Of a DNA stretch of 64,000 nucleotides, positions 4,201 through 42,900 are shown piece after piece. Under the pieces are notes generated by a model, which ran no database searches, had not been told where the DNA came from, and saw nothing but the letters and a program-made list of their open reading frames with translations. The DNA lies in assembly GCA_965285935.1 (NCBI GenBank), contig OZ260664.1:26846001-26910000 (forward strand). Reading direction: 5' to 3'. Source of the DNA: Ophelia neglecta. Taxonomy: Eukaryota. Made by a program: the position numbers and the translations under genes. The stretch's first letter is position 1, and each line of letters opens with the position of its first letter.

Positions 4201-5444
4201 AATCAAGAACCCACAATGGGAGGATTAACGGGCATGCTGTTCGTCGATCAAAGTGACTAAATAGTGGCAGTTTACCAAATCATGGCTAAAACTAAGTAAA
4301 TTATGGCTTATACACAAAAAATCCATCGATCAGACGTAGTAGTTATAAAAATGACACAATATATTCCTGTTTAAGTACAGAACTGACATGGAAAATAACC
4401 CACTGGGTCATTTTCACAGGATCTGGAGAACCCTTTTTGTTCTTCGTGGTAAATAAAAGAAGATATGGGTCGTCTGCCCGCAGAAATAACGAGTGATACT
4501 TATTCCTTGGAACTCTATGCGAAGCTTGGACTAAACCATGCCAAAAGACCACATAACCAATCGAAGGATTTCATAGTTTTCAGAATGTTTACAGGTTTTG
4601 TATTTCTTAGTATTGCTAACCGTATGACGATTTATATCTTGTTTCAAATTTTACCGAAATACATCATTTATTCTACATCGTATCCATCGACGTTTTTGGT
4701 ATTGTTTTCATCAAATGATTATCGATTCCGTGATTACACGCACATTAACACTTTCTATCGATCGGTGTAAATTATACATGTAAAAATACTTTGCACCAAG
4801 ACATTTACATCAGAAAATGTTGTTGATAGTGGATTGACATAATTTATACCATCTAGTAGAACCTCAGGTATAATAAATGTCAAAGCATCGAAATAAGCCT
4901 TGAAGACCTATTTCTCTGACGTTACGTCTTTGTTCGAGAAATTCGTGTGCACGAACATACTGAAATCTAAACGTTCTTGACATAATATGATGTTTGCTTT
5001 TTCGCGTAAATATATACCAGGCAGCTATAACAAAAGTACCGTAAAACGGACAGGACCTGTGAAAGGCAGGATATGAAACAAAATTATAATAATGTATCTC
5101 CACATATGTGTATACTTCAGTAGCCTCTCCTAATTTTAATTTTTACTCTTTTTTAAAGCATAAATGGAATGTCAGTCAAAGTCGCCCATATCAACCAAAC
5201 CAGTTGGCGCTGCAATCGTCCCTCCTTGTAGGAAAAAGACCAAAGGCAGAGATGCAATCAATTATTCAGAGAAAAAAATCCGGCATCAAGATATGAATAA
5301 TTGTGATTATTCTTCTGCAATATTAGAAGGCAGCACAGCAATAAGTTTAATTGACATCCGGTACTCGGAAGAAAGATTTTCATAGGTAGACAACAAACCT
5401 GCAATGAGCAATGCGATCGATTCCCGACCAGACATGAGAGCAGG

Positions 5445-7007
5445 ATGAGGCGTCCTTCGGTGATGGGAGGCAAATACAGGATGCTCCCTGGACAAGATGT
5501 TTCAAAAAGATTGTCATTTGATGGGAAATCACTTGTGTATACTTACAAGAATCTTACATCATACGCCCTTCCGCAAAGTAGTTTTATATCGGCAAACTTA
5601 CCGACCGATGTCCACTACCTCAAGCAAAACAGTCAGATAATTATTCAGCCCAGGCTAAGCGCATTTGGATCGGATTCTAAGAGGACAGCTGAACTTCACG
5701 TGTTAAATAAATATAGTCCAAGAATAACTAAAAATAATACCATCATATTACCAAAACTTGCATTAACAGATGAGTTTGAGGCAGAAGAACGTTTGAAAGA
5801 AGCCCTTGTATTAGGGGGCAACAAAGAACAAGTCAACAAAGAACCATGGTGTTCTTTTGAAGCCTACAATGGCCATACCCAGCAGAAAACCGGCTCGATG
5901 AATCCCAAACACCGCAGATTCAATAATTTTATTGCTGATAATGAACGGAAATCTGGAACCGTTGCCCAGAAGACAATTTCAAAAGTGGGATATTTGCCAC
6001 AATTTGACAATGACTCAAACTCGGCAGCTGACACAAATAAATTGGGAGAGACTAGAAAAGAGGGACAACGCTCGCTGGATGTAACACCAAGAATTACTAA
6101 AAAGATGAATTCATTATATTTCGAAGGGAATTCGTCAAGGAGCCCTTATGAGCATCAGAGTAAAGGCACACAAGGGATTTTCCTTGAATGGACAAAACAA
6201 AGGGCTGAACAAAGGCGTCTATTGGGTAACGCTCATAAACAACAAAACCCAGGCCTGCCAAGAATGCCAGGCAGGGACGGAATGCAGGAAACCCCAGAAG
6301 CGACCATATCTAGATGGCAGAGTTCCAATTTATTAGGACACCGAGAAAACGCTGGACATCATGGATTGAAACAATTTAAAGCCCGGTTAGATATGGCTAA
6401 CACAATAAAAACGATGTCACTGGATGGCACACATTTCCCTTCAGATGAAGAAGCCATTTCAAAGTCTGACAAATATAATTTTGCTAAATTCAAGCACAAT
6501 AAAAGTCAGAAGATGGTTCGGGTACCGAATTCCATTGCCGATGACGTCACTCGGAATAGTCAGATAGCCCAGTTACCTAAACAAGTTCCACATTATGAGT
6601 ATACAGTCGTTATGGATCCTAGTCAAACCGTTCGCACTAAGCCAACATCGCAACCCGACTCAGCTACTTTCGGTTATCGCGAGCCCCTCACATTTCGTTC
6701 TTTTAGAGACCAACGGAGTAAAAGCTACGAAATGTATGAAAAGGCATATGCGATGCGGGAAAAATTGGAACAAGAGGAGCGAGAAATGTTCTGCAGTATG
6801 AAGCGAAATGAAAGTGTTCCTCAATATGAAGAAGTTCATATTGATTTGAAACCAGAGAACATCGAGCCCATGTCCTACCACACTGGCAACCGGAGACCTG
6901 CAGTGAAAAATCCATGGGAACCGCACCAATGGCAGGAGCTGCCCCCAACACCTTATCTCCCCATGAATCCTCCTCCCTCGGCAGCCAGCTGTAACAGGGA
7001 GATGTAA
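5445..7007 (+). CDS. Uncharacterised 520-aa hydrophilic, likely intrinsically disordered protein (single coding exon)
   Basis: 1563-nt ORF in AT-rich DNA with an in-frame upstream stop near 5352; candidate acceptor ttttttaaag| at about 5158; S/K/N/Q/E/P-rich with a short charged helical segment (YEMYEKAYAMREKLEQEEREM) and a Pro-rich C-terminus; no recognisable domain. Confidence 0.75.
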   Translation: MRRPSVMGGKYRMLPGQDVSKRLSFDGKSLVYTYKNLTSYALPQSSFISANLPTDVHYLKQNSQIIIQPRLSAFGSDSKRTAELHVLNKYSPRITKNNTIILPKLALTDEFEAEERLKEALVLGGNKEQVNKEPWCSFEAYNGHTQQKTGSMNPKHRRFNNFIADNERKSGTVAQKTISKVGYLPQFDNDSNSAADTNKLGETRKEGQRSLDVTPRITKKMNSLYFEGNSSRSPYEHQSKGTQGIFLEWTKQRAEQRRLLGNAHKQQNPGLPRMPGRDGMQETPEATISRWQSSNLLGHRENAGHHGLKQFKARLDMANTIKTMSLDGTHFPSDEEAISKSDKYNFAKFKHNKSQKMVRVPNSIADDVTRNSQIAQLPKQVPHYEYTVVMDPSQTVRTKPTSQPDSATFGYREPLTFRSFRDQRSKSYEMYEKAYAMREKLEQEEREMFCSMKRNESVPQYEEVHIDLKPENIEPMSYHTGNRRPAVKNPWEPHQWQELPPTPYLPMNPPPSAASCNREM

Positions 7008-14318: not shown

Positions 14319-15804
14319 ATGATGATGAATTGTGGATTAGAGGACAGGGAAGCCAAGCCTCGAGTCACGTTTAAAGACTCGTTGGAGGAAAATGCTGAAG
14401 TCGGAACAAATGAAATGGACGCCTTGGACACCCTGAACAGCATGATTGACCTCAGCTTAGATGAAGGTACATACATATTTAGCTTATAGGCTACTCAATT
14501 ATGGCCGGAGCTGCCTTTCGAAATTAATGCATTTCGTCAAATAGTTTTGGATTCTATGTAGGGCTGGTCATAAAAGATTCATCAATAGTTTTAATTCTAA
14601 AGGCAACAGGCGTAATAACACCGGGTTCAACTTTGTATTTTAATTCCCTGTGGAAAGACATTATTGATATTTTTCGATATAGGATAAGTCTATGTACAAC
14701 GTTTTCATTAGTTTATCCCATACCAGCTAACGTTATTTCGAAATGCTCATTTCAGTGTCAACACCACGGCCAGCTAGCACGGAGCAAGTTCAGATAGGAT
14801 ACATTGGCCCTGGGATAAACAGTGACCAATCTGAGGATGTCATTGTTACAACATGTTCATCCGCTGCCCGCCCGTATCCTGGTGGATCTAGTAGCACCAA
14901 CTCCGGCAAGGAAATCATGGCGAGAGAAACTAGATTCGGACGTCCAACAAGTGGTCTGGCACTAGAAGACCATGGTGGAATCCAGTACGAGGGTAGTGTC
15001 AGCCTTAATGAGCCTCGCGTGTCGAATACTAATAATTATTTGGCACACTCCATATCACGCCAAATGACTTCCACGCGCTTGCGCCATCCGGCGGATATCC
15101 GTCTTATTAACGGCGTGTCTCAGCACTCCGGCGAAGAAACATGGCAGATCACATGGAAAACAGGAGTTCCTTTGATAAGTGCCTATATGGCTGGTGTAAC
15201 GTCATTTATTGCCTTTTTCCACATGCAAGATGGTCTGTTGCCGAGGTTAAAATACCCATTTATTGGAAACCTATTGGATTGGAAGCAAAATGTAACTCCT
15301 TTGGTATGGTGGGGAAATGGTGCCGTGCTGGTTTTACTTTTGTGGTGTATCGCTTATGCACGACGATTTCTGCATATAGTACTCTCTTTGGCCCTAGTTA
15401 AGCCTTACCGCCCAGTAGGTGAGAAGTCAGTGGGGCAGACAACATGTACTATCATCACATGCGTTGTCATGATAACCTACCACCTAATCATGGGGGCATG
15501 GCTTGGCTGGGCCAGTAATATATACCTCGGGTATATGATATCTGACCTTCAATATGCTGCAACCGGATTTGTACTAATGGCTGCTGCTGAAATAACTTGT
15601 GTCATAATGACTGTGCTCACCCTTAAGAGAAGAAAGCAGCGAAGTTTACGATATAAAATTACGAAAAATATTTTAGATTTTATCTCGTGGTTAGGTTTTG
15701 CTCTAGTTTCTCTTACTTTGCCAGCTTTTGTTCACTTATTGGTTAGAATAATCATTGTCTTTATTCTCTTGAAGTCGGATCAAGCGAGACCATCTTGTTG
15801 TTAG
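14319..15804 (+). CDS. Divergent TECR/steroid-5-alpha-reductase-like multi-pass membrane protein, probable pseudoenzyme, 398 aa (exons 14319-14466, 14756-15804)
   Basis: Exon 1 MMMNCGLEDREAKPRVTFKD...LSLDE ends phase 1 (GAA G|gtacat) and joins the phase-1 acceptor catttcag| at 14756 in the 14743-15804 ORF frame. The C-terminal half aligns block by block with the 17865 ORF (YPFIGNLL/WPLIGNLL; WCIAYARRF/WGIHFSRRF; GAWLGWASN/GLWNGWSLN; ISWLGFALVSLTLPAF/ITWVGFAVATMTLAAF). AATAAA at 16077. Confidence 0.8.
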
Positions 15805-17864
15805 AATTTAGGATGATTGTGTAACAACCAGTGCAAAGATTGAATTTATATACTTAACACAATTACAGTATCCATGTGGGTTTAACTATATTATAACATG
15901 ATATCAAAGATTCCATCATTTATATGATAAATGCCAACATAAGTTTGTGCTAATTTTAAGTTTCCACAAACGCATATCTGCCTCATTTTCAATCATTTTC
16001 AAGACTTGTCTTGCGAACGTAAAAATTGGCGTTTATCCAATTTTATTTTGTTTGATCTTCTAGGTTTGTGTGTTTGAATAAAGAAACAATTGGAATGCAA
16101 ATGTATATTGTTAATTACCTGTACATTGCCTAATGTACCTATATGAAAATTTATTGACCATCACTGAGATTGGGTTAATTTGATGATAAACAGGCCTGCT
16201 GTCATAAATTCCCCACAGATTATATAGGCATATTTGTTCTATACGAGACGAGCACTGGTGTACGATGTTGCCGTTGTTTAAAGGGCCCTTGAAGAGCAGA
16301 GATATCCGAGATATGCGATCGGTTGTTTGAACTTGTCGTCTGGCAGGTCGAAGGTTACACGACCTAGTCCTACCTGTACAGTACCTCCAACGTCTATACC
16401 TATACCTTAAGAGGCTATAGTTAGCATTGTAGGGGTCGACACAATAGTAGTTGGTGTGCTTAGTAATTGGAAATTGTCCAACCTCTAATGAACAATACAC
16501 GCTTCATAATGCTTGAAAGTTCTTAAACAAATGTTCAAAATCTATCAGGAGTTTCCATGCTTTATTTTGAAGTCAAATTGTTTATATGAGGTTAATTATC
16601 GGCCGATTGCGGTAAATAAATCGTCAGCACATCCACGGTATTTTGAGACGATACGTCTCTCGTAGTAAACAAGCTATACACCACCAGTGTCAACGAATGC
16701 TTTGGGGCCTTGCAATAGAACAATCTGTGAATGGCATTAAGTAGGCTGGAAACTTTACAAGCCCAGGCTTAAACCTGTATAATGCAAGTTATATCTGAAT
16801 GAAAACCTGTGAGGAGAATATGTAGGATACAACTAGAAGGAAGAAACTCCGTGGAAGATTAACCACTGATTGCAACAACTCCTGACAATATTTGGACGTA
16901 TTCGGTTTAGCCAAGGTTGTCACTTAACAAAATATGGACGGGAAACTTGAATCAAGTTTGAATGGTGTCCGATGTGAGGGGGCGTGTGTTGTTTCCAGTT
17001 TTGGACTGTACACGTTCATATGATATTATCGGTATGCGAAAATGTTTAAGGGCATATCATCGATATAACCTTAAACCTTATAAAGGGTAAGTAGCCTTTA
17101 TACTTGTGCTGTGCATATAGCTTACTGCCACACTGTGGTTATACTTAATTATTTAACAATGCCTTTTAATCAGCAAGGCTTTGGGCTACCTCTTCATTTT
17201 GCATTGCTTGATATACATACATAATTAAAATGCATCAGAATGAATCGACTTGCAAATTAATGTCATTTGTAATACTAACAGGTCAGACTTAACTCCTGCT
17301 AATGTAAGTCATCTAAAGATATGTCATGAACGGATCACTACTTTATAAGTTAATTTTAAGTAGAAGTTTCAGTTGTTTATATATTAACGAATCAATTCAG
17401 GTTCATTTTTTATGACTTCTCGTACAGATAGCAGATTAATATTCGACTTGATTTTTCACATTAGGCTAGTGTACATGTCTTTGAAGTGTTACAAATTGAT
17501 AAATGGATTACATTGGTCTTGCTAATGATTGGGCACAAAGTACATACAACAACTTGTAGGGATAGTGCATATTTGATGCCTGGATGACAGTATAATTTAG
17601 CATCCTACACTTTGTATTAACCAAAGATTTCGTCTTAAAAAAAGTTTAATATTGATCGATTCATTGAATGTTTTCAGTTGAATTTCTGATCACGATAGGT
17701 TACTTCCACTAATAATTTAATGCTCTTTTCTGTTGCAGATTTATTTATTCGTTCAGAAGAGGATACACCTCAATTGGAAAAAAATACTTTTTCCTACGTA
17801 GTAGTCATTAAACTTTTTCCTAGTAGTATCTATCAGCCCTACGTCAAAGATACGCATTACCGGA

Positions 17865-18683
17865 ATGGAGCGACAGTTTATGCGGGAGCAAGTGCGAGAG
17901 TCTCGGCGGTACCTGACTAGGAGTAGCGGCATTATACCCTACCGACCGGAAGACAATGGATGTTATCCAAGACTTTCTATCTCCTTATCCGCTTTCGGGG
18001 CCGCGTTCTTTTTTCTACTTGGAATAAACCTTGACTATATGCCTGTTGTGCCATGGCCATTAATAGGGAATCTGCTCCCTTTAGAAGAACTACTGGAAAG
18101 TGAAACTATAGTTGTCATGTTTATAGTTATGTGGGGCATTCACTTCAGCAGACGATTCGGAGAGGTTTTATTGCTGCATGATTATAGGAGGAAAATGAGT
18201 TATCTAGAAGCAATAGGTTGTAACCTATACTACTGGATATTTGGTTTGTGGAATGGATGGTCTCTGAACTTTATGCGAGATAAATGGTGGTATGCCCCAC
18301 CTCCAATTTTGTTGGTTTTAATAGGAACTTTACTTTTCGTAGTAGGTCAGATAGGTAACTGTGCTAGCCATATTAAACTTTATCAAATAAGGAAGAAAGC
18401 AAGTTTTTATGATCAAAATATTGTCAAATCCCAACATATCATTCCGAGAGGGCCCCTTTTTAAGTACATTTCCTGTCCACATTATTTATTTGAGTCTATC
18501 ACGTGGGTAGGGTTTGCTGTTGCCACCATGACATTAGCTGCGTTCGTGTTCATGCTGTGTACTATCATAACTGTGTCTGTCTACGCCTTCAGACGACACA
18601 AGGCATACCAGAAGGAATTCGATGGTCGTAATGGCAGGCAAAGGTATCCCGAAAGGAAAGCATGTATCCCTTTCATATTTTAA
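17865..18683 (+). CDS. 3-oxo-5-alpha-steroid 4-dehydrogenase family protein, trans-2,3-enoyl-CoA reductase (TECR/Tsc13/CER10)-like, 272 aa, intronless CDS
   Basis: Family motifs HFSRRFGEVLLLH, YYW, GQIGNxxxHxxL, IPRGPLFKYISCPHYLFE, RRHKAYQKEF and YPERKACIPFIF; several hydrophobic helices; in-frame stop at 17802 upstream of the ATG. Confidence 0.92.
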   Translation: MERQFMREQVRESRRYLTRSSGIIPYRPEDNGCYPRLSISLSAFGAAFFFLLGINLDYMPVVPWPLIGNLLPLEELLESETIVVMFIVMWGIHFSRRFGEVLLLHDYRRKMSYLEAIGCNLYYWIFGLWNGWSLNFMRDKWWYAPPPILLVLIGTLLFVVGQIGNCASHIKLYQIRKKASFYDQNIVKSQHIIPRGPLFKYISCPHYLFESITWVGFAVATMTLAAFVFMLCTIITVSVYAFRRHKAYQKEFDGRNGRQRYPERKACIPFIF

Positions 18684-24698: not shown

Positions 24699-25288
24699 CT
24701 ATAGTTGAGATGGCGGCGAATCAGAGTCTAATATTGGTATCTTAAAATATTTGCTGGTGGTGATTGGGTGAAAAAGAATGAGAGTTGTGATCAGGATGAA
24801 CAGAAGGCACAGCCAAAAAAAGAGTCTGTCGCAAACAGCTGCCACGTGGACCCACTCCTTGGCATAATCCGGCTTGTTATTGGTCTTATTTTTACTGTCG
24901 GAAGAGAAATTCCTCTCGAGTGGCTGTAGAGCTGGAGAACTGGCCGAGTGGCGGCGCTCGCGAGGCAGCTGCATGAGTGGGCTTCGTCTATCACGTGACC
25001 GATCCTCGTGAGATTCGTCATGTGAGGAGGAAGCGACCGGTTCGTGCATCATCACAAGTTTATACTTATGTTTGGACCTTGGCCTCTGGCCTCCTTCCGA
25101 GTCCTTCTCCCGGGCGTCTTGCGTTGGCACACAGTTACACATACAAAGTATCCGGGCAAGATAAATAACAAAGACTTTCTTGGCCCAGATTGGCACGGGT
25201 TTTTCCTTCATTCCGTACAGGTTTAGGACGAACACTGTTGCTACCATAGCCAGAGTGGTGATGGCCATCGTACAAGTCAGATAAATTC
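24699..25288 (-). CDS. Receptor last coding exon: M3, intracellular loop, M4
   Basis: Acceptor ttctttacag|GA; GIYLTCTMAITTLAMVATVFVLNLY...PVPIWAK...EWVHVAAVCDRLFFWL; TAG at 24701-24699. Confidence 0.93.
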
Positions 25289-28200
25289 CTGTAAAGAAAA
25301 CACAAACAACACTAATTATTTCTGTTTTTATCATAAAAACACTGAAGTCATGAACACTCCAAAATTGACTTTGGCATATGTATCATTAAGAGAATTATTA
25401 TGATTAAGATGCTAAACGAAAATACAAAATAAATTTGAATGAGCATTTCTGCAAGTGTTTTACCTAGTAAAGGCACATGGTCGGAGGTCCTTGGAATGGT
25501 GTCAGCGACATTAAGTAGGAAAAGTCTAAATGATAGCAGAGCTGCCACTCCAATGTGGACTTTTTGTGTGGGGGTGCAGAAAAAAATGCTTAACAGCACT
25601 GCCGAGGTCATTATTCCCGGCAATATCACATTCATTATGTAAAAGGTGTGCCGCCTCCGTAGCGCAACACTAAAGCCTATGTTGGAGAATCTCTGATTGG
25701 GACAACACTCGAAGTGGAACTCTCGGCGTTTGGTGCTCGTAGAGAGTAACTCCCACTCTCCATTCTTCTCGTAGTTATCTCTGACCGAGTAATACATGAA
25801 GTCAGTTCTGATCTTTAAACGAACGATTTAATATACTGGGTGCCATTTGAAATACGTTTGACAACTAATTTTTTATTGGATAGAAATATATTCAGACAAT
25901 GAGAGAACTCACTTATTGATAGTAGTGCTAGTAGTTGAAAGATTCATTTTGGTCGTGTAGTAGCTCCAGGCGCCGAAAATGAGCTCACACGTTTGCTCAT
26001 CGAACGGGTAGTAGGTGATATCGATGTGACACATTGTCTTAAAAACCCCGCCGGGTTCCCATCGGACCGAGCCGTCCGGGTGTAACACCGCCTGGAACTC
26101 CGTGTACTCCCCATAAATACTCTCAGCCCTAGTGACAGAAATATAAATGTTTGACTTATAGTACAAGATAATTCTAACTAAACTAACCGCGCCAGAATGT
26201 CACAAAATACAAACTACATGTAACCTTACTATAAAACAAAAAACAAAGACAGGCAAAATATGTGCCGTTCGATACAAATAAGAATTGTTTTAAGTAAATC
26301 AGGGTTACATGGCTTCTCGAATTAAGGATCTATAAGGTGAAAACACTGGGACCCGTTGAGCTTACTGCGGAAATTCTTACTTTGTACAAGTGTAAGGGGT
26401 ACTTGATCATGTAATGCATTTTCTTTCGTGAGTAATTACAAGAAATATGCCTTTGATGTGTTAGCAGTGTCCTGTATTACAAGGCCAATTTGTCTTTAAT
26501 TATTTCAATGAGCCATACGCTACACAGTGGAGATAGTGATGACCGTACAGGGAGGTATGTCATGGACATAGGAGAATTTCAAGGTAAATTCATTCCTCTG
26601 ATATGTCTGTAGCAGCACAATATTGCGGAACAGAAGATAATGGCAACTTGTTATTAGTAATCATGGGCAATAACAATATTAACTATCACACTGCTATACG
26701 TCGTATATAGCACCATAGAAAATTGACACGATGACCATTCAGATCAAAAGACCCATTCCTGGCATCTAAACAAACTGTACGGTCATCGCCCCATTTGTAG
26801 TATTCCGCGATATGACCTTGAAAAGAGGTTTTGCTTTATTTAAACAGAAACATTCAATAAGGGACATCATTATCCAAGGTTTCTTACAGAATAGAAACTG
26901 ATTTGATAACTGGAAATGACCTACCAGATGTGTACATTGTCTATAAAACTTATCTGCGGTTATATCGAATGGGCATTTAATTTACCCGTTAATGACAGCG
27001 AATTCCGGCCTCCATATTTTTTTTCCGTCGACGACGATTGTGTCCAGGCTGCTGATTTCTCTGTCCCAGGTAAGACGTTCGTCCTTCCATTCCTAAAGAA
27101 AGTGATAATAAAGGAACATATCTACAGTCTGTCGTATCAATAGATCAATATATTTATATCGAAATAGCTTAACGTTATTGGGATATACAGAGATCATGAC
27201 TTAAAGGCGTATAGGAGTATTGGCGTGAGTATCTAATTGTGGGCAGTGGGAGGTATGACCCACTGTAATAACGGCCATCTATTCGACATTTGGAAGCAAA
27301 ACAATCACGTCACTTGGCTCTTCAATTTCACAATGTGAATAAAATCATACATTCGAATATAAAATTACCCTACACTTAAACCTTAAGCCATTGTAGAATT
27401 TAAAAGTAAACCAATGTCACTCCCTTTTACCTAGCGGTGTTGCATAGCATATATGATAGGCCTACTTTGGCTGAGCGATATGCAACAGAAAGAAAATCAC
27501 AAAAACGGAATTCACGTGGATGACTACTTTTACTCGGACAGCATTATAGAGCAACTTATGGATGTGACGGTACTCCTTAAAAGCATTATTTATAGACCTA
27601 TTGCCCATGAAGCTGCACATATTCTTGGCAGACAGTGAAAGCCTTAATAAATGAATTTAATTTTGAAATCTTTTTTCTGCTCTTATTCCAATAACTTGAT
27701 TTGTGAAAATAAACTTCCCCAGATAAAATGTTATCATCATTCGCGTTGAAGTAAAAAATCGTGCTTCAACCCCTCTGGCATTTCTTAGCTATCTAGAGAC
27801 TAATGTGGCGTGCTAACCAGCACAACTCACCAGACGCGGAGTTTCGGGAACACTAAGGAGCCTCGTCTCTCAGAGTAGCCCACCTCATTCCTGACGCGGC
27901 TTGGGTACAGGCTTAGATATAAATTATTTTGATAGCAGGCCTATAGATGAGTCGGGCAAAAAGTACGTGCATGAAATGTGTCTTGGCTGTCAACCTTCCG
28001 ATGAGCTCACAGGGGTCTTTTTCGAGTAGCAAGGTTACCAGTTATCACTTATTACAATGTTTCATTGACTATCAAAACGGGACCATATCCTGATTTCACC
28101 ATTGCAGGTTTCTGGCAAGGTTTCCGACAATGTTCGTCATAACAAGATAAGAAGTTGTCACAACAACTTGCAAAACCATAAACTACCACCACCTCACCAA

Positions 28201-31200
28201 CGCAGTAAGTCATAGGACAAGAAACGATTCCATTACAAAGTTAATTAGTTATAAGAAAGAAAATTGTAAATTCTCCTTAGCACACATTTGCATCTATTTG
28301 AGAAAACAAACGCAATATATGAAAGCTAATTTTTTCTATTTACTCCCTTGCCTAAACATTATTGCCTGTTTATATAGGCCTTACGTGCCGACTTCTATAA
28401 TTAAACATGTTGACCTGAACTATACAATTTTTAAAATGTGATAGTATAAGAAAGTAACGGATGTGAAAAAATCATCAACATTTAAAATTGTATTTTTAAC
28501 AACAGTTGGCCTATAATTCTTACATGCCTATGTATATCCAAGTAGCATTGTCAGTGCTATAAAGGACATATTATTCAAGTTTTTTATGACTATAAAGAGT
28601 TGGAATCTACGGTAATGGATATCACTCCGAAATCTCTGTGCCAAACTAACAGAACAGAATGAAGGGACACATCGAAAAAGGTGTTAACGTTTTTAATGTA
28701 AATATATACGATGGCATACGCTGAAAAATTATGCGAAAACACCAGAAAACAAGCTGTTAACAATAATTGCCCTGCCACAGTCCATGCAGGGGCTCTTATA
28801 CAGCCAGTCTAAATTACCTAGTATTTATAAAAAATACTTTTAAGTATTCATTTTCCAATGTGCATCATGGTTTATTCTAAGCTGACAGACAGTGGCATTT
28901 TCATTTTATTGACCGGCAAACATTGATCCTTCTCAAAGTATGTTGAACAACATGTAATGTTTATTCTATCTGGGGCCTAAAACCTAAAAGTGCTCGGGGA
29001 ACAGTATAATCTATTGTAAATATGTGCATTCATCAAGCCCTCCCATTTCATCCGTCTAGACAGAGTGATATAAACATGCAAATTAAATGGGTAAAGAACA
29101 GAGATTGCAGTAGTTTAACCTCAGGCAGTTTTACTATAAAATGCAATATCTGATATTTAACGAAATCGTTTAAGTTAAGTATGAAGCACTAGTTAGTATT
29201 AGTTCAAGCATTAGTAGACGGTGCTGTTGTATGTCGTCTGCTGCTTCTTTTCAGCTCTTCAAAGCAGCTTGATAAACAATGAAAAACGGGATTGGACAAC
29301 CGCAGACAAAGCACAATCAAGACTTTTTCATTGAGGGTGTTCGAAATCACGAGGAACCAGCAGCTAATCAAGGGATTGGGCTGATGTTGAAATATGTTCG
29401 CAAAAACAAAATACACTTAAGTTCATAGCATTTATAATACATAACCAGTAACCCCCTGGTGATGTTTAGCACAAATAACGACAGCATTCGAGTGGATTTT
29501 CATGCGTGTATTGAACAAATTTGCATAAGGACTTTAAACCTGGCGATATCGTCTCTGTTGCTCTCATTGATTTTGGATTATGGGACTTCCCCTCATGTTT
29601 ACGAAAACCATACAAGTCAAGTATCTCAAAGTCTGGTAATTGTACTCGGAAAATACACTGGAGGAATTGATGGTTAGTCCCAACAGCTGTGTCATTCTAT
29701 AGCCGCTCACTGTTCAGATTGGCTATCAGTCCCGCGGGTCATTTTTTTTATTATCGGAGCCACATCTATATTGTGTGTTATTAAAAACAAACAATCCTAG
29801 CTGGATAAAAATCGAAATTCCTGACATACTCGATACGTCAATATCACTGTTATCTATTTTAAACCTAATAACAACTGAGCTATCGGGATATTATATGAAC
29901 ACGTTCTCTTTTACATTAACTTCGATTTAGTTGTTTTCAAAACGTACAGTTTTCCAAATGTGTGCATCGAACAATCGATTCAAGATATATAAACATGGGC
30001 ATGCATGTCCCTTAATAATGGTTTGCCTAGAATTCGTCGATCCCACTGCAAGCGGCAAAGGAAGGCGTTGGGGGGGGGGGGGGCTTTTTGTGAATTGTTC
30101 AATGAAATTTCCCTAGCACGAGTAGAAATTTTGTCAGAAAGGAAACCAAATACGATTAAAAATAGGTTTAGTCCTATCAGTTTATCCAGTAATGCAAATT
30201 ATATAATTATGATTCATTGTCTTTGGCATTGACATATGAATTCTTAATATAGTGCATTTAGTATCTTATTTGCAAATGAAATTATAATGGAATTGACTAG
30301 GTCTAAGTTAGTACTTTTCTATTCCAGTTAAGGCACACGGTCGGATGAATTTGCAATAACGTCATTGATATAAAAAAGGCGAAGTTTAGACGATAACAGA
30401 GCTGCGATCTTATCACATTCTGTGTCCACATAGGCCTACGTTGTTTAGACGATAACAGAGCTGCGATCTTATCACATTCTGTGTCCACATAGGCCTACGT
30501 TGTTTAGACGATAACAGAGCTGCGATCATATTAGAAATGTTATCATTGTTTCCGCGACAAAAATGTAAACTGTCTCGCGCGCCTCCGGTGACGCAAGAGT
30601 AATGTTACTGTCTGCTGGGTAGGTGTAGGCAAGCACATGTTAAATTGTCTGTGTTCGGATTATGATCTCTATTTGTTTTCAGTAACAGTTCAATATCTTG
30701 GTAGTTCTGTGAAATGATCTATTATCACAAAAGGTACTCTCTTGCTGGCAAGGATTATACGTAATTCGTGCTAGTTGGTTAGCACACTATATTATCGAGC
30801 ACACATGTTTACATAGCTGATAGGTAAAGCCAAGGATGCACAGCATGCGTGCATCACGTGACGGGGCTAAATGCCTCCTGAGTTATTCATGGACATAGTT
30901 TATCATATTTATCTATTCCTGGTCCAGTCATTGAGGAAAGTACATACCATTATCAAAAGGCCGGTAGAAGTAAGAATCTGGCTCCGCACATTCTAAAATG
31001 ATAAAAATTTGGAAGTTGTTTAATAAGACAATCTTAGAGTACAAACTCCATATTGACAACATTAGTACATACATAAATAATAATTACACAATGCTGCAGA
31101 TTTCAAGAATATATATCAAAATTTAGACGTCTTCCAATACATTGTCACCTTAATCATGAAATATTTACTGAAGAGTATTCAGCAAGATGACGTTACAATA

Positions 31201-34200
31201 ATGATCCCACTTACCAATTCTTGTAAAAGGAGCAGAGAAAACTGTAGATTGACTTGAACTGTCTTCGATGAGTTGAGAACAGGCCTGGCCGACGGATTGT
31301 AGTCCTGAAACAAGTACTCGAGCAACTTCTCTTCGTCCGACTGTACCTTGTACGTTAAGCTAATAGCTCCTGAAATTAAAATCGAACTTATATAAGCAAT
31401 TGGGTGAAGTCTTGTAAAATCGCACATCCGGCATATAAACTGCGCAGTTATTGGGCTTCTTCCGCGCTTTTTTTAAAGGAAGGGCCTTTAAACCAAAGTA
31501 CCCGACTTTATCCTACTTGAATATAGTCCCTAACTTACTCACCTGCTTTGTCAAGACGCCATTTTAATTTTAATCTATACTCATATTGGATCATTATAGC
31601 ATCTACCCTGGATAGGCTGAGGGTACTTGGTCCACATAGGGCTGCTTTTGCCCGCAAGATTAGAATTAACTGTGTTTAAACCAGGATCGCTAGTCCAACT
31701 TGTTTTAGCGTACGTTTCAATGTTTCTGGTTTAACCATTGTTCTGATTTATCATGATTATTCTTGTTAGGAAGCCGAATGCCAAAAACTTGTGTATGTTG
31801 GTGAACCCACCGCTGATTCCGGGCCAAACTACAAAACCATTCTTTCTAGGAATAACATGTGTAAGTGTCGATCGGTTCTACCAATGTAGTAACTCTATAA
31901 GGCGTGGTCTAATATATATATTTCTAAATCCTATAGTATATAGATATACAACGTGGATCCCCAGCCCTCCGACTAGAAGTTCACATACTAACTTTTTCTA
32001 AAGAAGAGGTTTGGTAATTGTGTGCACTTGTTGTTCAACATCTACAAGATAACTTTTTTCCGTTTTCAGGTTTCTTTACCACGTTATTGACATTTCACTG
32101 ATTGCTCCGAGTGTTCAACACCTGCGTCGAATAAATGTGGGGTATACAAACAAACCCGGTTGTTGTTCAAAGAGTCTTTGTCTTAATGTATTGCAGTGAC
32201 TTGCCCATCTAGGACAGCCGGAAACGATAGGGGTCTGCTGTCAGGGGGGGGGGGGGGGGCTCCTAGTCATCTCAGCGCTCTGCGATTTTTAAACAAGAAA
32301 GTTTCTATTGGCAATTCTCTGCCAATTAGAAAAAAAAGAGTTTAGAATGATTGATGGGCAGTAAAGACAACTTATTTTTTCATTACAGTGTAGATGATAA
32401 TCATTTGTCCACTTTGGTACGATATATAATGTAGGGTAAAATTATAATTAAATACTTAAAGTAATTTATCTTAGGTAATTATTCAAGGGAAGCGCTTATA
32501 TTATGAAGGCCTTCTTCTATATATGAAAAATATATAATACATTTGAAGCAGGTTTTTGGCTCAAAAAGGGAACACTGCTGGGATATATTTTCCATTCATT
32601 TCTGAGAAAGGGGATAGGCCTATCATTTCAACGCCTCTCTGTATGTGTGAAATGTGTTCACGTTGTTTTGAAAATGCAAATGGAAACGGGAGTACCACCT
32701 CGAAAAAAACGGCTACGACAGGCTAGACCCTTCCCAAAGTATAAATGATAGATTGGTATTTAATACAAATGTCAATGAAAGTAAACGCTTTTGTTTTTTC
32801 GAGGCACCAGTCTATAGTTGCATTTGTTGAAAATGGACAACATAAAATATAAACGACCTCATGTTTTGATAAAAAATATTTCCATGGATGGCAGCTGGTC
32901 AGAGCTTACGAGATATTCATGTGCCGAAGAGACTATAACAATCTGTTAAATGATCTAAATCCGAAAGCGATGGAGAAGTGCACAATTAACACATGCACCC
33001 CAAAGGGGTAGAAATAGCGCGATTCATGTGTCGGCATCCATGCAGAAGCTTGTTCTGCTGGATCTGCATTCGTCGCAAGTATGTTAATGACCCAGGCTTC
33101 CAACACCTTCTCATACGATAAGAAACAACCGATATGGGCCCTGAACGATACAGTGATAAATTACCAGGCCTGTTGAAACATTTAATAATAAACTGGTGAC
33201 CTACATCAAAGAAAATTACTCAGCGTCTAATTTTCCGGGCGGGAATATTTATCTATACATTAAATGTTATAATTTAGAACACACTTTGGAATGCTTGTAG
33301 AATTTTCTTCTCGAGGAACTACATTAGCAAAGGTTTGCTTGAAATAGATTAATGCAGAAAAAATAAAAATGTAATGCCATCTGAATCATTTCAGGGATGA
33401 GTAAGTTTTCGAGGACCAATCAAATGTATTATTTTTATACAGTGAACCCAGATATAAAACATATATAAGTTGGTACATCTTATACCAGTCCCTGGTATAA
33501 GATATGACACATGGGATACCGTATGGGCCAGTGATGAACAGTTCCTGGTAGAAGATATCACTCTTGGGATTCCGTGTGTGTCTGTGATGAACAGTCCCTG
33601 GTTTAAGATATGACACTAGGGATTCCGTATGGGCCTGTGATGAACAGTTCCTGGTAAAAGATATGACATTTGGGATACGGTATGGGTCTGTGAAGAACAG
33701 TTCCTGGAAGAAGATATCACTATTGGGATTCCGTGTGTGTCTGTGATGAACAGTCCCTGGTATGAGATATGACACTAGGGATTCCGTATGGGCCTGTGAT
33801 GAACAGTCCCTGGTAGAAGATATGACACTTAGGATACGGTATGGGTCTGTGAAGAACAATTCATGGTATAAGATATGACACTAGTGATTCCGTATGGGCC
33901 TGTGATGAACCGTTCCTGGTATATTTGGACTGGCTTAATGGACTCTTCTTGCCAGCTGATTTTAGTTGTCTATACAATATTGCTTTCAAATAATTTTAAT
34001 ATTGTTATAAAATCCATTTTTCCCACTTTTGTACCAATTATTAGTTCACAAAATCTAAGAAACAATCACCATTTCACCAAATGGTAACTCAAATGGATTT
34101 TTGCGAACTTTTCTTTTGAACTGCAGTTCATTCAATCTATTATTTTCTTACAGAAGCGGTGAAATAATATGGCCAACAAACGTATTTTCTACATAAATAT

Positions 34201-40200: not shown

Positions 40201-42900
40201 GGGCAAGGAGTCTTAATACACTTCCGGTAGGAATTTAAAGTTAAGGCCACTACCCTTATTGCCAATTCTAGGCGGCAACGAAGTAAACTAAGAAAGCTGG
40301 TGTTTAACGTCTAGTAAACAAATTCAGCCCAATGTCAACTCGGCCCAATTTCAACTCAGCACAAAGTCAGTTTTATAAAAGTGAAAGGAAATTCGCGCTA
40401 GCTAAAGTGGCCATGGTATATACCATGAAAAACTTGCAAGATACAATTTTCAACACTCATTTTAGACCGGGTCATTGGAAGTGTAGCTGCATGCAGGTAT
40501 TTGGGTTTTGATATATAAAGAGCCTATTTCTCGTATTATTAACTTTAAGAAGTTGGATAAGATACGTTTTAGCAACTTAGGAGCCGGGTTCCGTTAAGAT
40601 TTGAGTACCGTTGCTCTCACTGTAAAGGCGATAATTGTTAAGAATCTAATTCCACTTCCTGTCACTGTTTCGAAAAGGGAAATCCGAAAAAGCGACCCGG
40701 TAGGAGCATATACATGTATGCGACGTCATACAATAGTTACGTCGCTTCTTTTATTGGGCACCAAATGTCGACAAATACTGTAGTCCATGCATTGGTTGTT
40801 TTGATAATAGAGAACTCCAGATAGTTTTTGATAATTTGGCCCATGCGTGACGGCAACTCTACATTCATAAAACAAGACAGGCACTATAACTGTTGGCATA
40901 GTTGAATGTTCTGGACCAGCTAAAGGATGTCTCTACATGTTTCTCTGGATCTCTCTTCGAATCGGGGCAGCAATTTTATCCTGTCGAATTAACGTTGTGA
41001 GAACTATAAGATGTAGCTGTTTCAAGGCAACTGTCCTTTCTTTTGATTTAGTGTCCTTCTTTCAATAGTAAGTTTATTGTTGCTTTGGGTCCCATTACAG
41101 TATGAGACTAATGACCCCGGCATAAAGTGCTCTGCATACCAACAAACATGGAACTGCCAATCACCACGAATTCAATATTCCCACTAACCTTGCCAGGACT
41201 CCCCGCGGGCATTTCGATTGGCACAAAATAGTCGAACAAGACACTAACTAATATCAATGTAAATTGCCAGGGGACCACCAACATAATTAACTGCGAGCGG
41301 CCGATTAGTATGCTACTTACTAGTCATAATTATAACAAAGTTACGCTCTCAGCCTATGGCTGTCATTTCATATTGTTCGGTCTTGGCCAATGGGTTGGCT
41401 GATGTGAATGTCAATGTTTTGGCCGAGAACAGTTGCGATGGGCGTTTTAAGCCAGCTCAAATGACAATTGGGGGGCATAAAACTGGCATAACGGCCGTTA
41501 TCGCCAGGCAATTCTCCCAGTTTATGAGTTTCCCTGTCCACAACAATAGCGAGAACAAAAACTTTTAAAAGTTCGTTTATGGAATAGTCTTGAATAGCAC
41601 TTGTTGTTTGGCCTTTTGGTTTGTATTATATACAATAGCCACCCGGAGGCCGTTAAAAGGACACAGCAAAAACAAATATAGAGCGACGGACCCTACATAG
41701 ATTTAAAGGCTATTGATTAAACCCGGACGTGCGGAAGCTATGCGTACGCGGAGGTCATGGGTATTTCAGAGTGCCAGGAAGCAAAAAAGCGTCAACAAGG
41801 TTAGGGTTAGGGCTGAGGGTTAATTTCAGGGTAAAGGGACGGGTTAGAGAGATGATGATTAGGTCTTGTGCTCTGTTTTCATTTCGGGATTTACCTCCGC
41901 AAGGCTCCGCGCTTCTGCTTATACCAAAGCCGATTTGAACAAATCAAATGAACCAGGTCACGGCCTGGCACCGGAAACGTACATAAAACGTTACCGTATT
42001 TCCGTTACCAATGGTAGACCTACTCAACACAGAGTTTATCTTGACTGTGCGCCAGTTTGCTGCTAGGCTGCAGCCACCTTTTCTCCTGAAAAGATCTCAA
42101 GAGGACATAATATCCTAATGGCACACGTAACTTGATTGCGAGTTGAAACGCAACGGTTAGAAAAAGTACACAAAGTACTTTATTTCCAGTATTGTGGAAG
42201 TTTAAACCATTCACTATAGACCCACCAATCCCCAGGTGCACATAAAATAAGAAGCAACTGTTTGTTGTTCCTGGGTGTTAGAGCGACAATCGTCGCCTAA
42301 AAGGTGTGCGCCTGATTAAATTGGACCTACAGCTGGCGACACCTGTTTCTTTTCTGGAGTGTCTGCTACAAACTTTAGCTCATCGGTTACAAGCTTGATT
42401 TATTACTCTGAGGCAGCAGACAATACTGCTCAATCTGACGAAAAGATCCCATTTGTTTGCTTCAAGACTAATTTTTTGTCCGATAGATTTATCAGACGCT
42501 AAATTTCATTTGGTCCCAATGGCAAGCGAAGCGGCTGAAATTCAGTCAATAAATGGTGAGGGCGCAAACAACAGATCGCTGCAAATATTGAGTACATGTA
42601 CTAAATAAGAGCTTGTCCACTATTTTATGGTTAGATTGTTGAGTGTTTTCAGCCGCAGGCATCATAAAAAATCTTGTCCATGTAAAATCACGTCATCGTG
42701 CCAAGGTACTTTCCCACTTCACAATGTTTAATATATCTTTTTAACATCTTTATCTGATTTTGATCAACTCTAGTAACATTAAATATTGCTTTTATCCTCC
42801 CCAAGAACGATTTTAACCACTTACCGTGAACAAAACACAGCAGGACCAAAAGAAGAGTCCAAGACAACACCTTTACGCCCTGTTGTGCCCCAGGATTCAT
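24699..42900 (-). CDS. Nicotinic acetylcholine receptor alpha-like Cys-loop ligand-gated ion channel subunit, 501 aa, 7 coding exons (42900-42825, 31369-31215, 30992-30948, 27092-26986, 26128-25913, 25780-25464, 25288-24699)
   Basis: Signal peptide; EEKLLEYLFQDYNPSARPV; WKDERLTW; IWRPE; Cys-loop CHIDITYYPFDEQTC; loop B FGAWSY; NGEW; vicinal CC in loop C; M1-M4 with EWVHVAAVCDRLFFW. All junctions are GT-AG and phase-compatible (1,0,0,2,2,1); the total of 1506 nt equals 501 aa plus TAG. Confidence 0.93.
25464..25780 (-). CDS. Receptor exon: loop C, M1, M2, M2-M3 loop
   Basis: DNYEKNGEW...FECCPNQRF...LRRRHTFYIMNVILP...PRTSDHVPLLG|gtaaaa. Confidence 0.93.
25913..26128 (-). CDS. Receptor exon: Cys-loop and loop B
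   Basis: DGSVRWEPGGVFKTMCHIDITYYPFDEQTCELIFGAWSY; cactag| acceptor and |gtgagt donor. Confidence 0.93.
26986..27092 (-). CDS. Receptor exon: WxD motif to loop A (not in ORF track)
   Basis: EWKDERLTWDREISSLDTIVVDGKKIWRPEFAVING; ttctttag| acceptor and |gtaaat donor. Confidence 0.9.
30384..30527. repeat. 59-bp tandem repeat, ~2.4 perfect copies (intronic)
   Basis: gtttagacgataacagagctgcgatcttatcacattctgtgtccacataggcctacgtt starts at 30384, 30443 and 30502. Confidence 0.9.
30948..30992 (-). CDS. Receptor 45-nt micro-exon (loop D; not in ORF track)
   Basis: NVRSQILTSTGLLIM, phase 0/0, cattttag| acceptor and |gtatgt donor; matches the conserved 45-nt nAChR exon (DEKNQVLTTNIWLQM in alpha7). Confidence 0.88.
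31215..31369 (-). CDS. Receptor exon: N-terminal helix to beta1
   Basis: AISLTYKVQSDEEKLLEYLFQDYNPSARPVLNSSKTVQVNLQFSLLLLQEL; aatttcag| acceptor and |gtaagt donor. Confidence 0.92.
33486..33923. repeat. 53-bp minisatellite, ~8.3 copies, with 3-unit (159-bp) higher-order periodicity
   Basis: Unit cagtYcctggtaNaagatatgacactNgggattccgtatgggcctgtgatgaa; diagnostic variants recur every third copy. Confidence 0.92.
34243..34310. repeat. 33-bp tandem duplication
   Basis: agttctgYtcatattatataYatttcttactaa x2. Confidence 0.8.
34680..35640 (-). mobile_element. Decayed non-LTR retrotransposon (L2/CR1-type LINE) reverse-transcriptase fragment in a receptor intron
   Basis: Frameshifted remnants FNTVDPRHLTHRL (cf. 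AFDTVDHxILLxRL) and VTVNG...CGVPKGSVLGPILL..YT...DTIRKH (cf. GVPQGSVLGP); YADD not intact; boundaries approximate. Confidence 0.8.
42825..42900 (-). CDS. Receptor first coding exon: signal peptide
   Basis: MNPGAQQGVKVLSWTLLLVLLCFVH-G ending in the phase-1 donor CAC G|gtaagt, compatible with the phase-1 acceptor at 31369 (11.5-kb intron). Confidence 0.8.

Follow-up and report, generated by a model that had tools for sequence, protein, structure and literature searches.

Does a subunit that keeps the vicinal cysteines of a nicotinic acetylcholine receptor (nAChR) alpha subunit still bind acetylcholine (ACh) when most of its aromatic box has been replaced? This question is raised by a minus-strand gene in a 64,000-nucleotide stretch of the Ophelia neglecta genome (the window; contig OZ260664.1, positions 26,846,001 to 26,910,000). 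The gene has lost three residues needed for ACh binding, together with the pore glutamate of cation channels.

Gene structure

The locus consists of six GT-AG exons, which join into an open frame of 475 amino acids closed by a stop codon; with a probable signal exon joined in frame, the product has 501 amino acids. The full gene spans 31369-24699 (-), plus the probable signal exon at 42900-42825, and exceeds the 25687..30992 of the original prediction. The predicted first coding exon, encoding the signal peptide (42825..42900, -; 76 bp, phase-1 donor), is the best of four upstream candidates: its hydrophobic core is the strongest of the four, and its donor, GTAAGT, is perfect. The exons that follow encode the N-terminal helix and beta1 (31215..31369, -; AG/GT ends, Pfam Neur_chan_LBD 1e-05), loop D (30948..30992, -; 45 bp, with splice sites), loop A (26986..27092, -), loop E, the Cys-loop and loop B (25913..26128, -; Pfam 1.1e-17), then loop C, M1, a shortened M1-M2 loop and M2 (exon 5; 25464..25780, -), and finally M3, the intracellular loop, M4 and the stop (24699..25288, -; Pfam Neur_chan_memb 2e-18). 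For exon 5, an alternative acceptor at 25807 is likewise in frame, and homolog lengths favour 25780. The 45-bp loop D exon is present in 7/7 paralog loci examined, with Leu in six and Trp in one.

The product has a C-x13-C Cys-loop (Cys at residues 161 and 175; codons at 26031 and 25989), a beta-sandwich ECD and four transmembrane helices, and it matches PF02931 and PF02932, which places it in the Cys-loop pLGIC superfamily. The vicinal cysteines in loop C make it formally an nAChR alpha-type subunit. Neuronal nAChR alphas rank first among the PDB matches listed, in both sequence and fold comparisons (26-29% identity), and a model of the close homolog P0011, of modest confidence (pLDDT 62.7), matches nAChR structures. 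ESM Atlas matches were to generic nAChR/LGIC clusters only. The top match for exon 5, a "glycine receptor fragment", was set aside for its low recognition score, and a comparison with 5-HT3 was dropped because the sole 5-HT3-like protein considered (P0232) is too divergent.

A pseudogene or assembly artefact is ruled out by the open frame, the conserved orthologs and the read-derived contigs. These contigs, from three read runs of one sample, span all bins with zero exon indels and carry three exonic allelic variants, all synonymous; introns are covered evenly, and the reads are uninformative on splicing and expression.

Ligand-binding pocket

The aromatic box TyrA/TrpB/TyrC1/TyrC2/TrpD reads Ile/Trp/Phe/Phe/Leu in this gene (codons 26993-26991, 25968-25966, 25713-25711, 25689-25687 and 30959-30957). 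The loop B Trp is the sole canonical residue at the five sites, and the vicinal Cys-Cys (from 25707) is retained. The substitutions and retained residues listed in the original prediction are real: they can be read from the minus-strand codons and hold in alignments of window exon 5 to alpha7 and of P0011 to alpha4, the latter placing Leu opposite the loop D Trp and Ile opposite the loop A Tyr. Further replacements are Glu for Asp in loop A (27005) and Ile for the beta7 Lys (25980); loop E carries Glu (26058), and loop C also carries Asn. Summed over the five classic positions, three hydroxyls and one indole are gone; three aromatics and the new loop C Phe persist in the pocket.

According to the accessible text of PMC4006026, TyrA, the TyrC1 hydroxyl and the loop D Trp have roles in ACh binding; their absence supports, by inference, the earlier claim that the gene probably does not encode an ordinary ACh receptor and is an orphan. 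For TyrC2, the cited passage holds that just the ring counts, so Phe at this site is neutral; Phe is also common there in other sequences (49/184 rows), an ordinary change by itself. The pattern as a whole exceeds background: among 99 rows from outside the gene's clade that have the vicinal Cys and a residue at each of the five sites, 82 retain at least four canonical residues and only 2 retain at most one. Here and below, rows are database clusters rather than independent species.

Within the clade, the altered pocket is conserved. The loop E Glu is near-invariant (64/65 rows), as are the loop A Glu (20/20), the loop B Trp (53/53) and the new loop C Phe (59/61), and the beta7 Lys is kept in 3/53 rows only. 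This near-fixation of new residues on both faces suggests that the pocket is a site in use.

Pore

The cation-type GEK motif is absent, as position -1' is Gln (25566) in a P-T-Q-K motif with Pro at -3'; the PAK/PAR motif found at -2' to 0' in AChRB-type anion nAChRs is absent as well. Lys 0', His 2' (25557), Leu 9', Arg 12' (25527), Asn 17' (25512) and Asp 20' follow along M2. An alignment gap shows the M1-M2 loop to be two residues shorter than in alpha7. When rows were divided by ECD identity alone, Arg 12' was present in 69/69 rows at >=55% identity and in 1/185 rows at <45%, whereas the -1' Glu was present in 0/69 and 165/185, respectively. The distance from the M1 Pro to 0' is 19 in 65/65 clade rows and 21 in 163/179 other rows. 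Leu 9' is invariant (65/65 clade rows), 13' is Leu or Ile, and His 2' marks the gene's own branch (40/90 clade rows), the other branch having Gln.

By the usual numbering, 12' lies outside the central pore-lining positions, so its Arg may be uncharged or in part buried. In the consulted passages of PMC6800317, the known switch from cation to anion selectivity includes removal of the -1' Glu, a single M2 Arg can confer chloride conductance, and alpha7 further requires a Pro insertion and V13'T. Judged from the sequence, the channel is likely anion-permeable or poorly selective, and the pore could remain cationic in a heteromer with GEK subunits.

Phylogeny and conservation

The altered box is the hallmark of an old subfamily. 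Its 17 named members come from annelids or Intoshia, and it is apparently confined to annelids. The O. neglecta genome contains five paralogs of the subfamily, four besides this gene sharing its pore motif; the altered loops A and E are common to eight of its genes. One-to-one-like orthologs occur in Capitella, Ridgeia and Helobdella (64-70% overall identity), and members in other annelids rule out a species-specific oddity.

Placement by phylogeny, which the original prediction had proposed, recovered a distinct clade that stays monophyletic after removal of the trait columns (16 rows, 100/98). It is nested in a divergent lophotrochozoan nAChR radiation (37 rows, 100/100) that joins molluscan "alpha-10-like" rows (98/98), in a tree holding no cephalopod chemotactile receptor (CR) sequence and none known to be DopC. 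An annelid sister clade has the same loop A, D and E changes, yet retains GEK and Thr 12'. Because this sister clade combines the new pocket with the old pore, the change in the pocket likely preceded that in the pore. Both the conserved clade as a whole and its rewired pore had been overlooked in the original prediction.

A literature search found no publications characterising the clade, and supplements of PMC10338036 (four files) and PMC6896357 (seven, one unreadable) gave no motif or ID matches; very likely, published trees with Capitella and Helobdella sequences already contain the clade without a name for it. Just 13/33 oyster alpha subunits have a full principal site (PMC6896357), and an altered box by itself is common among the expanded nAChRs of lophotrochozoans. 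What sets this family apart is its phylum-wide conservation, with both the new pocket and the new pore signature fixed. Together, the clade and its sister form a natural test case for how a pLGIC can change its charge selectivity without a PAR motif. With members on record in leech and Capitella, the clade is a defined deorphanisation target, and work on it could bring to light a new ionotropic transmitter system of annelids.

Proposed function and alternatives

Our preferred reading, held tentatively and at somewhat short of an even chance, is that the gene encodes an intact Cys-loop subunit of an apparently annelid-restricted nicotinic offshoot, in which an endogenous small amine other than ACh would open a likely Cl- permeable or poorly selective channel, probably formed with paralogs. 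From the observed gene model, residue changes, clade and conservation, we infer a ligand, a gating and a pore step. A cation-pi site would still be provided by the loop B Trp and the two loop C Phe. Loss of TyrA, of the TyrC1 hydroxyl and of the loop D Trp would open the pocket, and the conserved Glu of loop E, which lies on the complementary face, would bind a protonated amine. In ACh receptors, a Lys/Tyr/Asp triad couples loop C to gating; here the triad as a whole is replaced by Ile/Phe/Asn. In the pore, -1' lacks an acid, and Lys 0', His 2' and also Arg 12' are present; this combination would remove the cation filter and add positive charge, though not through the Pro-Ala-Arg/Lys motif. 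Related alpha9/10-type offshoots such as DopC have switched to monoamines, as the available text of 10.1101/2025.04.02.646353 describes. Box residues are nevertheless poor ligand predictors, because DopC changed its ligand with the full box intact (10.1101/2025.10.31.685654, available portion). Evidence against an amine-gated anion channel also includes the shorter clade loop and Leu or Ile at 13', whereas the alpha7 anion switch took a Pro insertion and V13'T, and the survival of loop C tyrosines, both of them in paralog locus L005 and TyrC1 in 36/90 clade rows.

An improbable extension is that an annelid fast inhibitory family arose in two steps, from a non-cholinergic amine pocket shared with the cationic GEK sister clade to an independent chloride switch in which the loop shortened, the -1' Glu was lost and Arg 12' became fixed, without PAR. 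If true, a single transmitter would act on a matched pair of excitatory and inhibitory receptors. Leech neurons have a fast serotonin- and dopamine-gated chloride conductance, for which no source was retrieved in the literature search, and the clade could underlie it.

Among the rivals to the amine-gated channel, a rather unlikely one casts the product as part of a heteromeric ACh receptor, in which it would be accessory or contribute only principal faces, tuning kinetics or permeability with no new ligand. Vertebrate alpha5 retains Cys-Cys without the binding tyrosines, and the related locus L006, which keeps the loop D Trp and GEK, could provide complementary faces. A non-aromatic loop D is typical of principal-face-only subunits in the portion of PMC4006026 consulted, and the annelid orphans Alpo1, 2 and 4 were silent in 33 test conditions (PMC4801368). 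The near-fixed residues on both pocket faces, however, and the eight genes sharing the loop A and E changes argue against a purely accessory role. A receptor with low affinity for ACh or choline, perhaps an inhibitory one, is a doubtful candidate: the gene retains the loop B Trp, both loop C rings and the vicinal Cys-Cys, and an inhibitory transmitter role for ACh in leech is reported in the accessible part of PMC6054404, but TyrA, the TyrC1 hydroxyl and the loop D Trp are all gone, and annelids already have orthologs of PAK-type ACh-gated anion channels (10.1101/2025.04.02.646353, in the text available).

The original prediction's alternative, a chemotactile-like sensor with a hydrophobic pocket for lipophilic environmental compounds, draws on the lost hydroxyls and indole and on the family's position within the divergent lophotrochozoan radiation. 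A lipophilic ligand is improbable given the near-invariant loop E Glu and annelid-wide conservation of the pocket down to its fixed acid, whereas CR pockets are positively selected and CR genes, unlike this one, lack introns. Least likely of all is a channel that is modulated by pH or stands constitutively open as a leak, its pocket being vestigial or modulatory. The 2' His ring of the gene's branch would fit such a channel, as would slow-channel gain of function from muscle-receptor substitutions at the Thr that is Arg here (numbered 13' in 10.1101/2024.12.13.624530, 12' here), but Leu 9' is invariant, the pocket is conserved, and the other branch has Gln at 2'.

Comparison with known receptors

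Vertebrate alpha7, alpha4, alpha3 and alpha9/alpha10-like subunits share the fold, Cys-loop, Cys-Cys, loop B Trp, Lys 0' and Leu 9' with this gene. Unlike them, it has four of five box residues changed, a gained loop E Glu, no -1' Glu, an M1-M2 loop shorter by two residues, Arg 12' and Asn 17'. The ACh-gated anion channels AChRB, LnAChR-B and SmACC are likewise nAChR-derived and without the cation-type GEK; they have PAK (10.1101/2025.04.02.646353, as far as its accessible text goes), whereas the clade has P-x-Q-K, a shortened loop and a lost ACh box. Alvinella Alpo1 (Alv-a9) and Alpo4 are also annelid nAChR-like orphans, and Alpo1, as in the clade, lacks the -1' acid. Alpo4 differs from the gene in its F/W/Y/Y/W box and absent Cys-Cys; Alpo1 probably lies outside the clade, its closest homolog being reported at 36% identity, too low for a member.

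Cephalopod CRT1 and CRB1 resemble the clade as nAChR offshoots with a remodelled orthosteric pocket, and neither was seen among the best 60 of 90 PDB matches. In the sections available, CR genes are intronless (PMC13174522) and the CRT1 pocket is built on positively selected aromatics (10.1101/2025.03.03.641191). CRs are expanded and diversifying, whereas the clade is intron-bearing (six to seven exons here) and conserved, with an acidic pocket residue. Like the clade, DopC is nAChR-like and alpha9/10-related; it is not gated by ACh, a property that is only predicted for the clade. According to the text available of 10.1101/2025.10.31.685654, DopC has YxCC, both loop C tyrosines and a required loop B Asp before Gly, none of which is present in the gene, and DopC is cationic, whereas the clade is predicted to be anion-permeable or poorly selective.

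Gene structure and neighborhood

Every motif named in the original prediction was located on the minus strand by six-frame translation of the window. Six coding exons with AG/GT ends, at 31369-31215, 30992-30948 (45 bp), 27092-26986, 26128-25913, 25780-25464 and 25288-24699 (all minus strand), join to encode 475 aa with no internal stops. A putative signal exon at 42900-42825 (minus strand), the best of four candidates in the upstream window, combines a strongly hydrophobic core with a perfect donor; we infer that it belongs to the receptor gene, and its addition extends the frame to 501 aa. Neur_chan_LBD or Neur_chan_memb was matched in all five exons scanned (the 45-bp exon was left out of the scan). 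Read-derived contigs, from three runs of a single sample that may be the same source as the assembly, cover 30 of 30 bins, with no exon indels and three exon variants, all synonymous. Intronic repeats comprise a multi-copy element over which contig depth is raised (~26430-26900), a short tandem duplication (~30390-30530) and a minisatellite (~33480-33880).

Other features were also noted. A Steroid_dh ORF (3-oxo-5-alpha-steroid 4-dehydrogenase; 17805-18683, plus strand; Pfam 2.2e-26) lies 6 kb from the 3' end of the receptor gene. It may form a tandem pair with a divergent relative at 14731-15804 (plus strand; 26% over 172 aa, E 5e-08), for which no Pfam match was found. A 550-aa open frame at 5355-7007 (plus strand), with no Pfam or NCBIfam match, resembles a low-complexity large exon.

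Binding pocket

The ACh-binding aromatic box residues (TyrA, TrpB, TyrC1, TyrC2, TrpD) take their names from the loops, and M2 positions follow the prime scheme with Lys as 0' and Leu as 9'; both registers were taken from tool alignments. All substitutions originally listed were confirmed on the minus strand in the open gene model, which encodes Ile (A), Trp (B), Phe (C1), Phe (C2) and Leu (D) together with the vicinal Cys-Cys. Such a box is rare outside the gene's own subfamily, the Arg-12' clade: Cys-Cys is present in 99 of the 142 non-clade rows in which all five sites are filled, and of these 99 rows, 82 retain four or five canonical residues and two retain at most one.

Pocket conservation was counted over 65 clade rows, many of them partial. 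Loop B Trp is invariant (53/53), as is the loop A Asp-to-Glu change (20/20), and loop A Ile is found in 21/24. Loop D is Leu in 14 of 19 rows and Trp in none. A new Phe two residues N-terminal of C1 (59/61), C2 Phe (58/62) and the post-C2 Asp-to-Asn change (50/62) are common, and the beta7 Lys is kept in just 3/53. At the loop E contact position, where alpha4 has Thr, 64/65 rows of an enlarged row set have Glu. C1 differs by branch, with Phe in 39/40 rows of the window gene's His-2' branch and Tyr in 35/49 Gln-2' rows. The exact I/W/F/F/L set occurs in 8/20 complete rows, counting the window gene.

Pore signature

The original prediction overlooked changes in the pore. Compared with alpha7, exon 5 has a two-residue gap N-terminal of M2, and M2 itself carries -1' Glu to Gln, His 2', Ala 6', 12' Thr to Arg, Leu 13' and Asn 17'. 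When rows are assigned to the family from ECD identity alone, and with rows that are clusters rather than species and include the window gene, Arg 12' occurs in 69/69 rows at >=55% identity, 5/6 at 45-55% and 1/185 below 45%; the corresponding counts for Glu -1' are 0/69, 0/6 and 165/185. The distance from the M1 Pro to 0' is 19 in 65/65 clade rows, and 21 in 10/10 rows of an annelid sister clade and 163/179 other rows. A distance of 19 is also seen in eight of the other rows: four truncated clade members and four that resemble register shifts.

Alpha7 is reported to become anionic when -1' Glu is removed, a Pro inserted and V13'T introduced, and a lone M2 Arg at the gate to give chloride conductance at positive potentials (PMC6800317). 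Selectivity determinants sit at the intracellular end of M2 (PMC5715906), where the window gene lacks the acid and has Lys 0' and His 2'. However, PAK, a known anion motif of nAChR-derived channels (10.1101/2025.04.02.646353), is absent, and the M1-M2 loop is shorter rather than longer, so selectivity is not readable from the motif. On the sequence, the chances that the pore is anion-permeable or non-selective are roughly even. Since changes at the same Thr position in muscle receptors cause slow-channel gain of function (10.1101/2024.12.13.624530), Arg 12' may, by analogy, act on gating rather than selectivity.

Distribution and phylogeny

The search with exon 5 yielded 57 proteins among 331 candidates (best identity 80-85%), and that with a full-length homolog 36 among 5847; a profile search over 1.84 billion representatives listed the best 150 matches. 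Of the clade members collected, 17 have an organism name, 15 from annelids (Capitella, Helobdella, Dimorphilus, Ridgeia, Lamellibrachia and Paralvinella) and two from Intoshia, an orthonectid taken as a derived annelid. Judged from these 17, a minority of clade members, the clade is likely confined to annelids. The two members in the highly reduced parasite Intoshia linei are P0061 and P0079, one Gln-2' and one His-2'; their retention suggests an important function.

Exon 5 has 87 matches in the Ophelia genome, and the four at 65-70% identity share the pore motif. The loop A and loop E changes also occur at three further loci, which instead carry the cation-type GEK motif (-2' to 0'). Loop D is Leu in six of seven paralog loci and Trp in L006. 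This locus (L006 / L039; G000:C2:66529734-66530264, minus strand), not among the tree rows, is an intermediate paralog with clade-like loop A Ile and loop E Glu that retains loop D Trp, TyrC1 and GEK. A sister-clade paralog (L008 / L043; G000:C2:17983227-17983763, minus strand) shares with Capitella P0226 and Helobdella P0227 a Tyr at the loop B Trp position; TyrC2 is the paralog's sole canonical box residue, and Cys-Cys and GEK are retained. Near-identical non-alpha nAChR-like genes (L016, L020-L022, L024, L025; G000:C2:27.08-27.16 Mb), without Cys-Cys and with PY in the Cys-loop where PF is usual, form a tandem cluster. It is a recent expansion, for which a chemosensory role fits better than for the window gene.

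From ~230 proteins, 63 rows were selected for a maximum-likelihood tree (LG+G4, 282 columns) with pocket and M2 columns removed. The Arg-12' clade (16 rows) is supported at 100/98, the His-2' branch (7 rows) at 97/87 and the GEK sister group (7 rows) at 99/92; long-branch warnings concern rows outside these clades. Among the tree rows, which included no known cephalopod chemotactile receptor, DopC (dopamine-gated channel) or AChRB (ACh-gated anion channel), both clades fall inside a 37-row divergent lophotrochozoan group (100/100), which joins "alpha-10-like" rows (98/98). The sister clade has pocket changes yet keeps GEK and Thr 12', suggesting that the pocket changed before the pore, although the two clades are joined at just 86/67.

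Ligand and mechanism

For ACh-type agonists, the hydroxyls of TyrA and TyrC1, the ring of TyrC2 and loop D Trp are reported to matter (Lynagh and Pless, PMC4006026). Three of these determinants are lost in the window gene, so it probably does not form an ordinary ACh site, as originally predicted. The prediction had offered another amine or a lipophilic ligand; because a cation-pi site is retained and an acid gained, a protonated amine is the preferred ligand class. A lipophilic sensor is an improbable rival. These changes should be read with caution, since DopC switched ligand with its box retained (10.1101/2025.10.31.685654) and altered boxes are common in the lophotrochozoan nAChR radiation (PMC6896357, PMC13174522); 13 of 33 oyster alpha subunits have a complete box (PMC6896357). 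A weak ACh or choline receptor is, with three determinants lost, just as improbable.

Our tentative proposal, somewhat short of an even chance, is a pentamer of the window subunit, probably with Gln-2' paralogs, that would be gated by an endogenous amine other than ACh and would conduct chloride or both ion classes. The window gene could instead encode an accessory subunit of a heteromeric ACh receptor, which we consider unlikely, or a pH or leak channel, the most doubtful reading.

Comparison with known systems

Sequence and fold searches found no close PDB relative among the matches listed, which were only vertebrate nAChRs, 5-HT3A, DES-2/DEG-3, ACR-23 and Alpo4. Alpo4 differs from the window gene in its box and lacks Cys-Cys (PMC10338036). 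Alpo1, like the window gene, lacks the -1' acid, and it is reported to give no response in 33 test conditions (PMC4801368). Its closest homolog is reported at 36% identity (PMC10338036), and this figure argues against placing Alpo1 in the Arg-12' clade; should Alpo1 belong there after all, its lack of response would already count against the gating of simple homomers by ACh, monoamines or pH. No description of the clade was found in the literature searched, which left most subscription papers outside its scope. The window gene belongs to an old, conserved and apparently uncharacterised annelid nAChR-like subfamily in which pocket and pore are jointly rewired.
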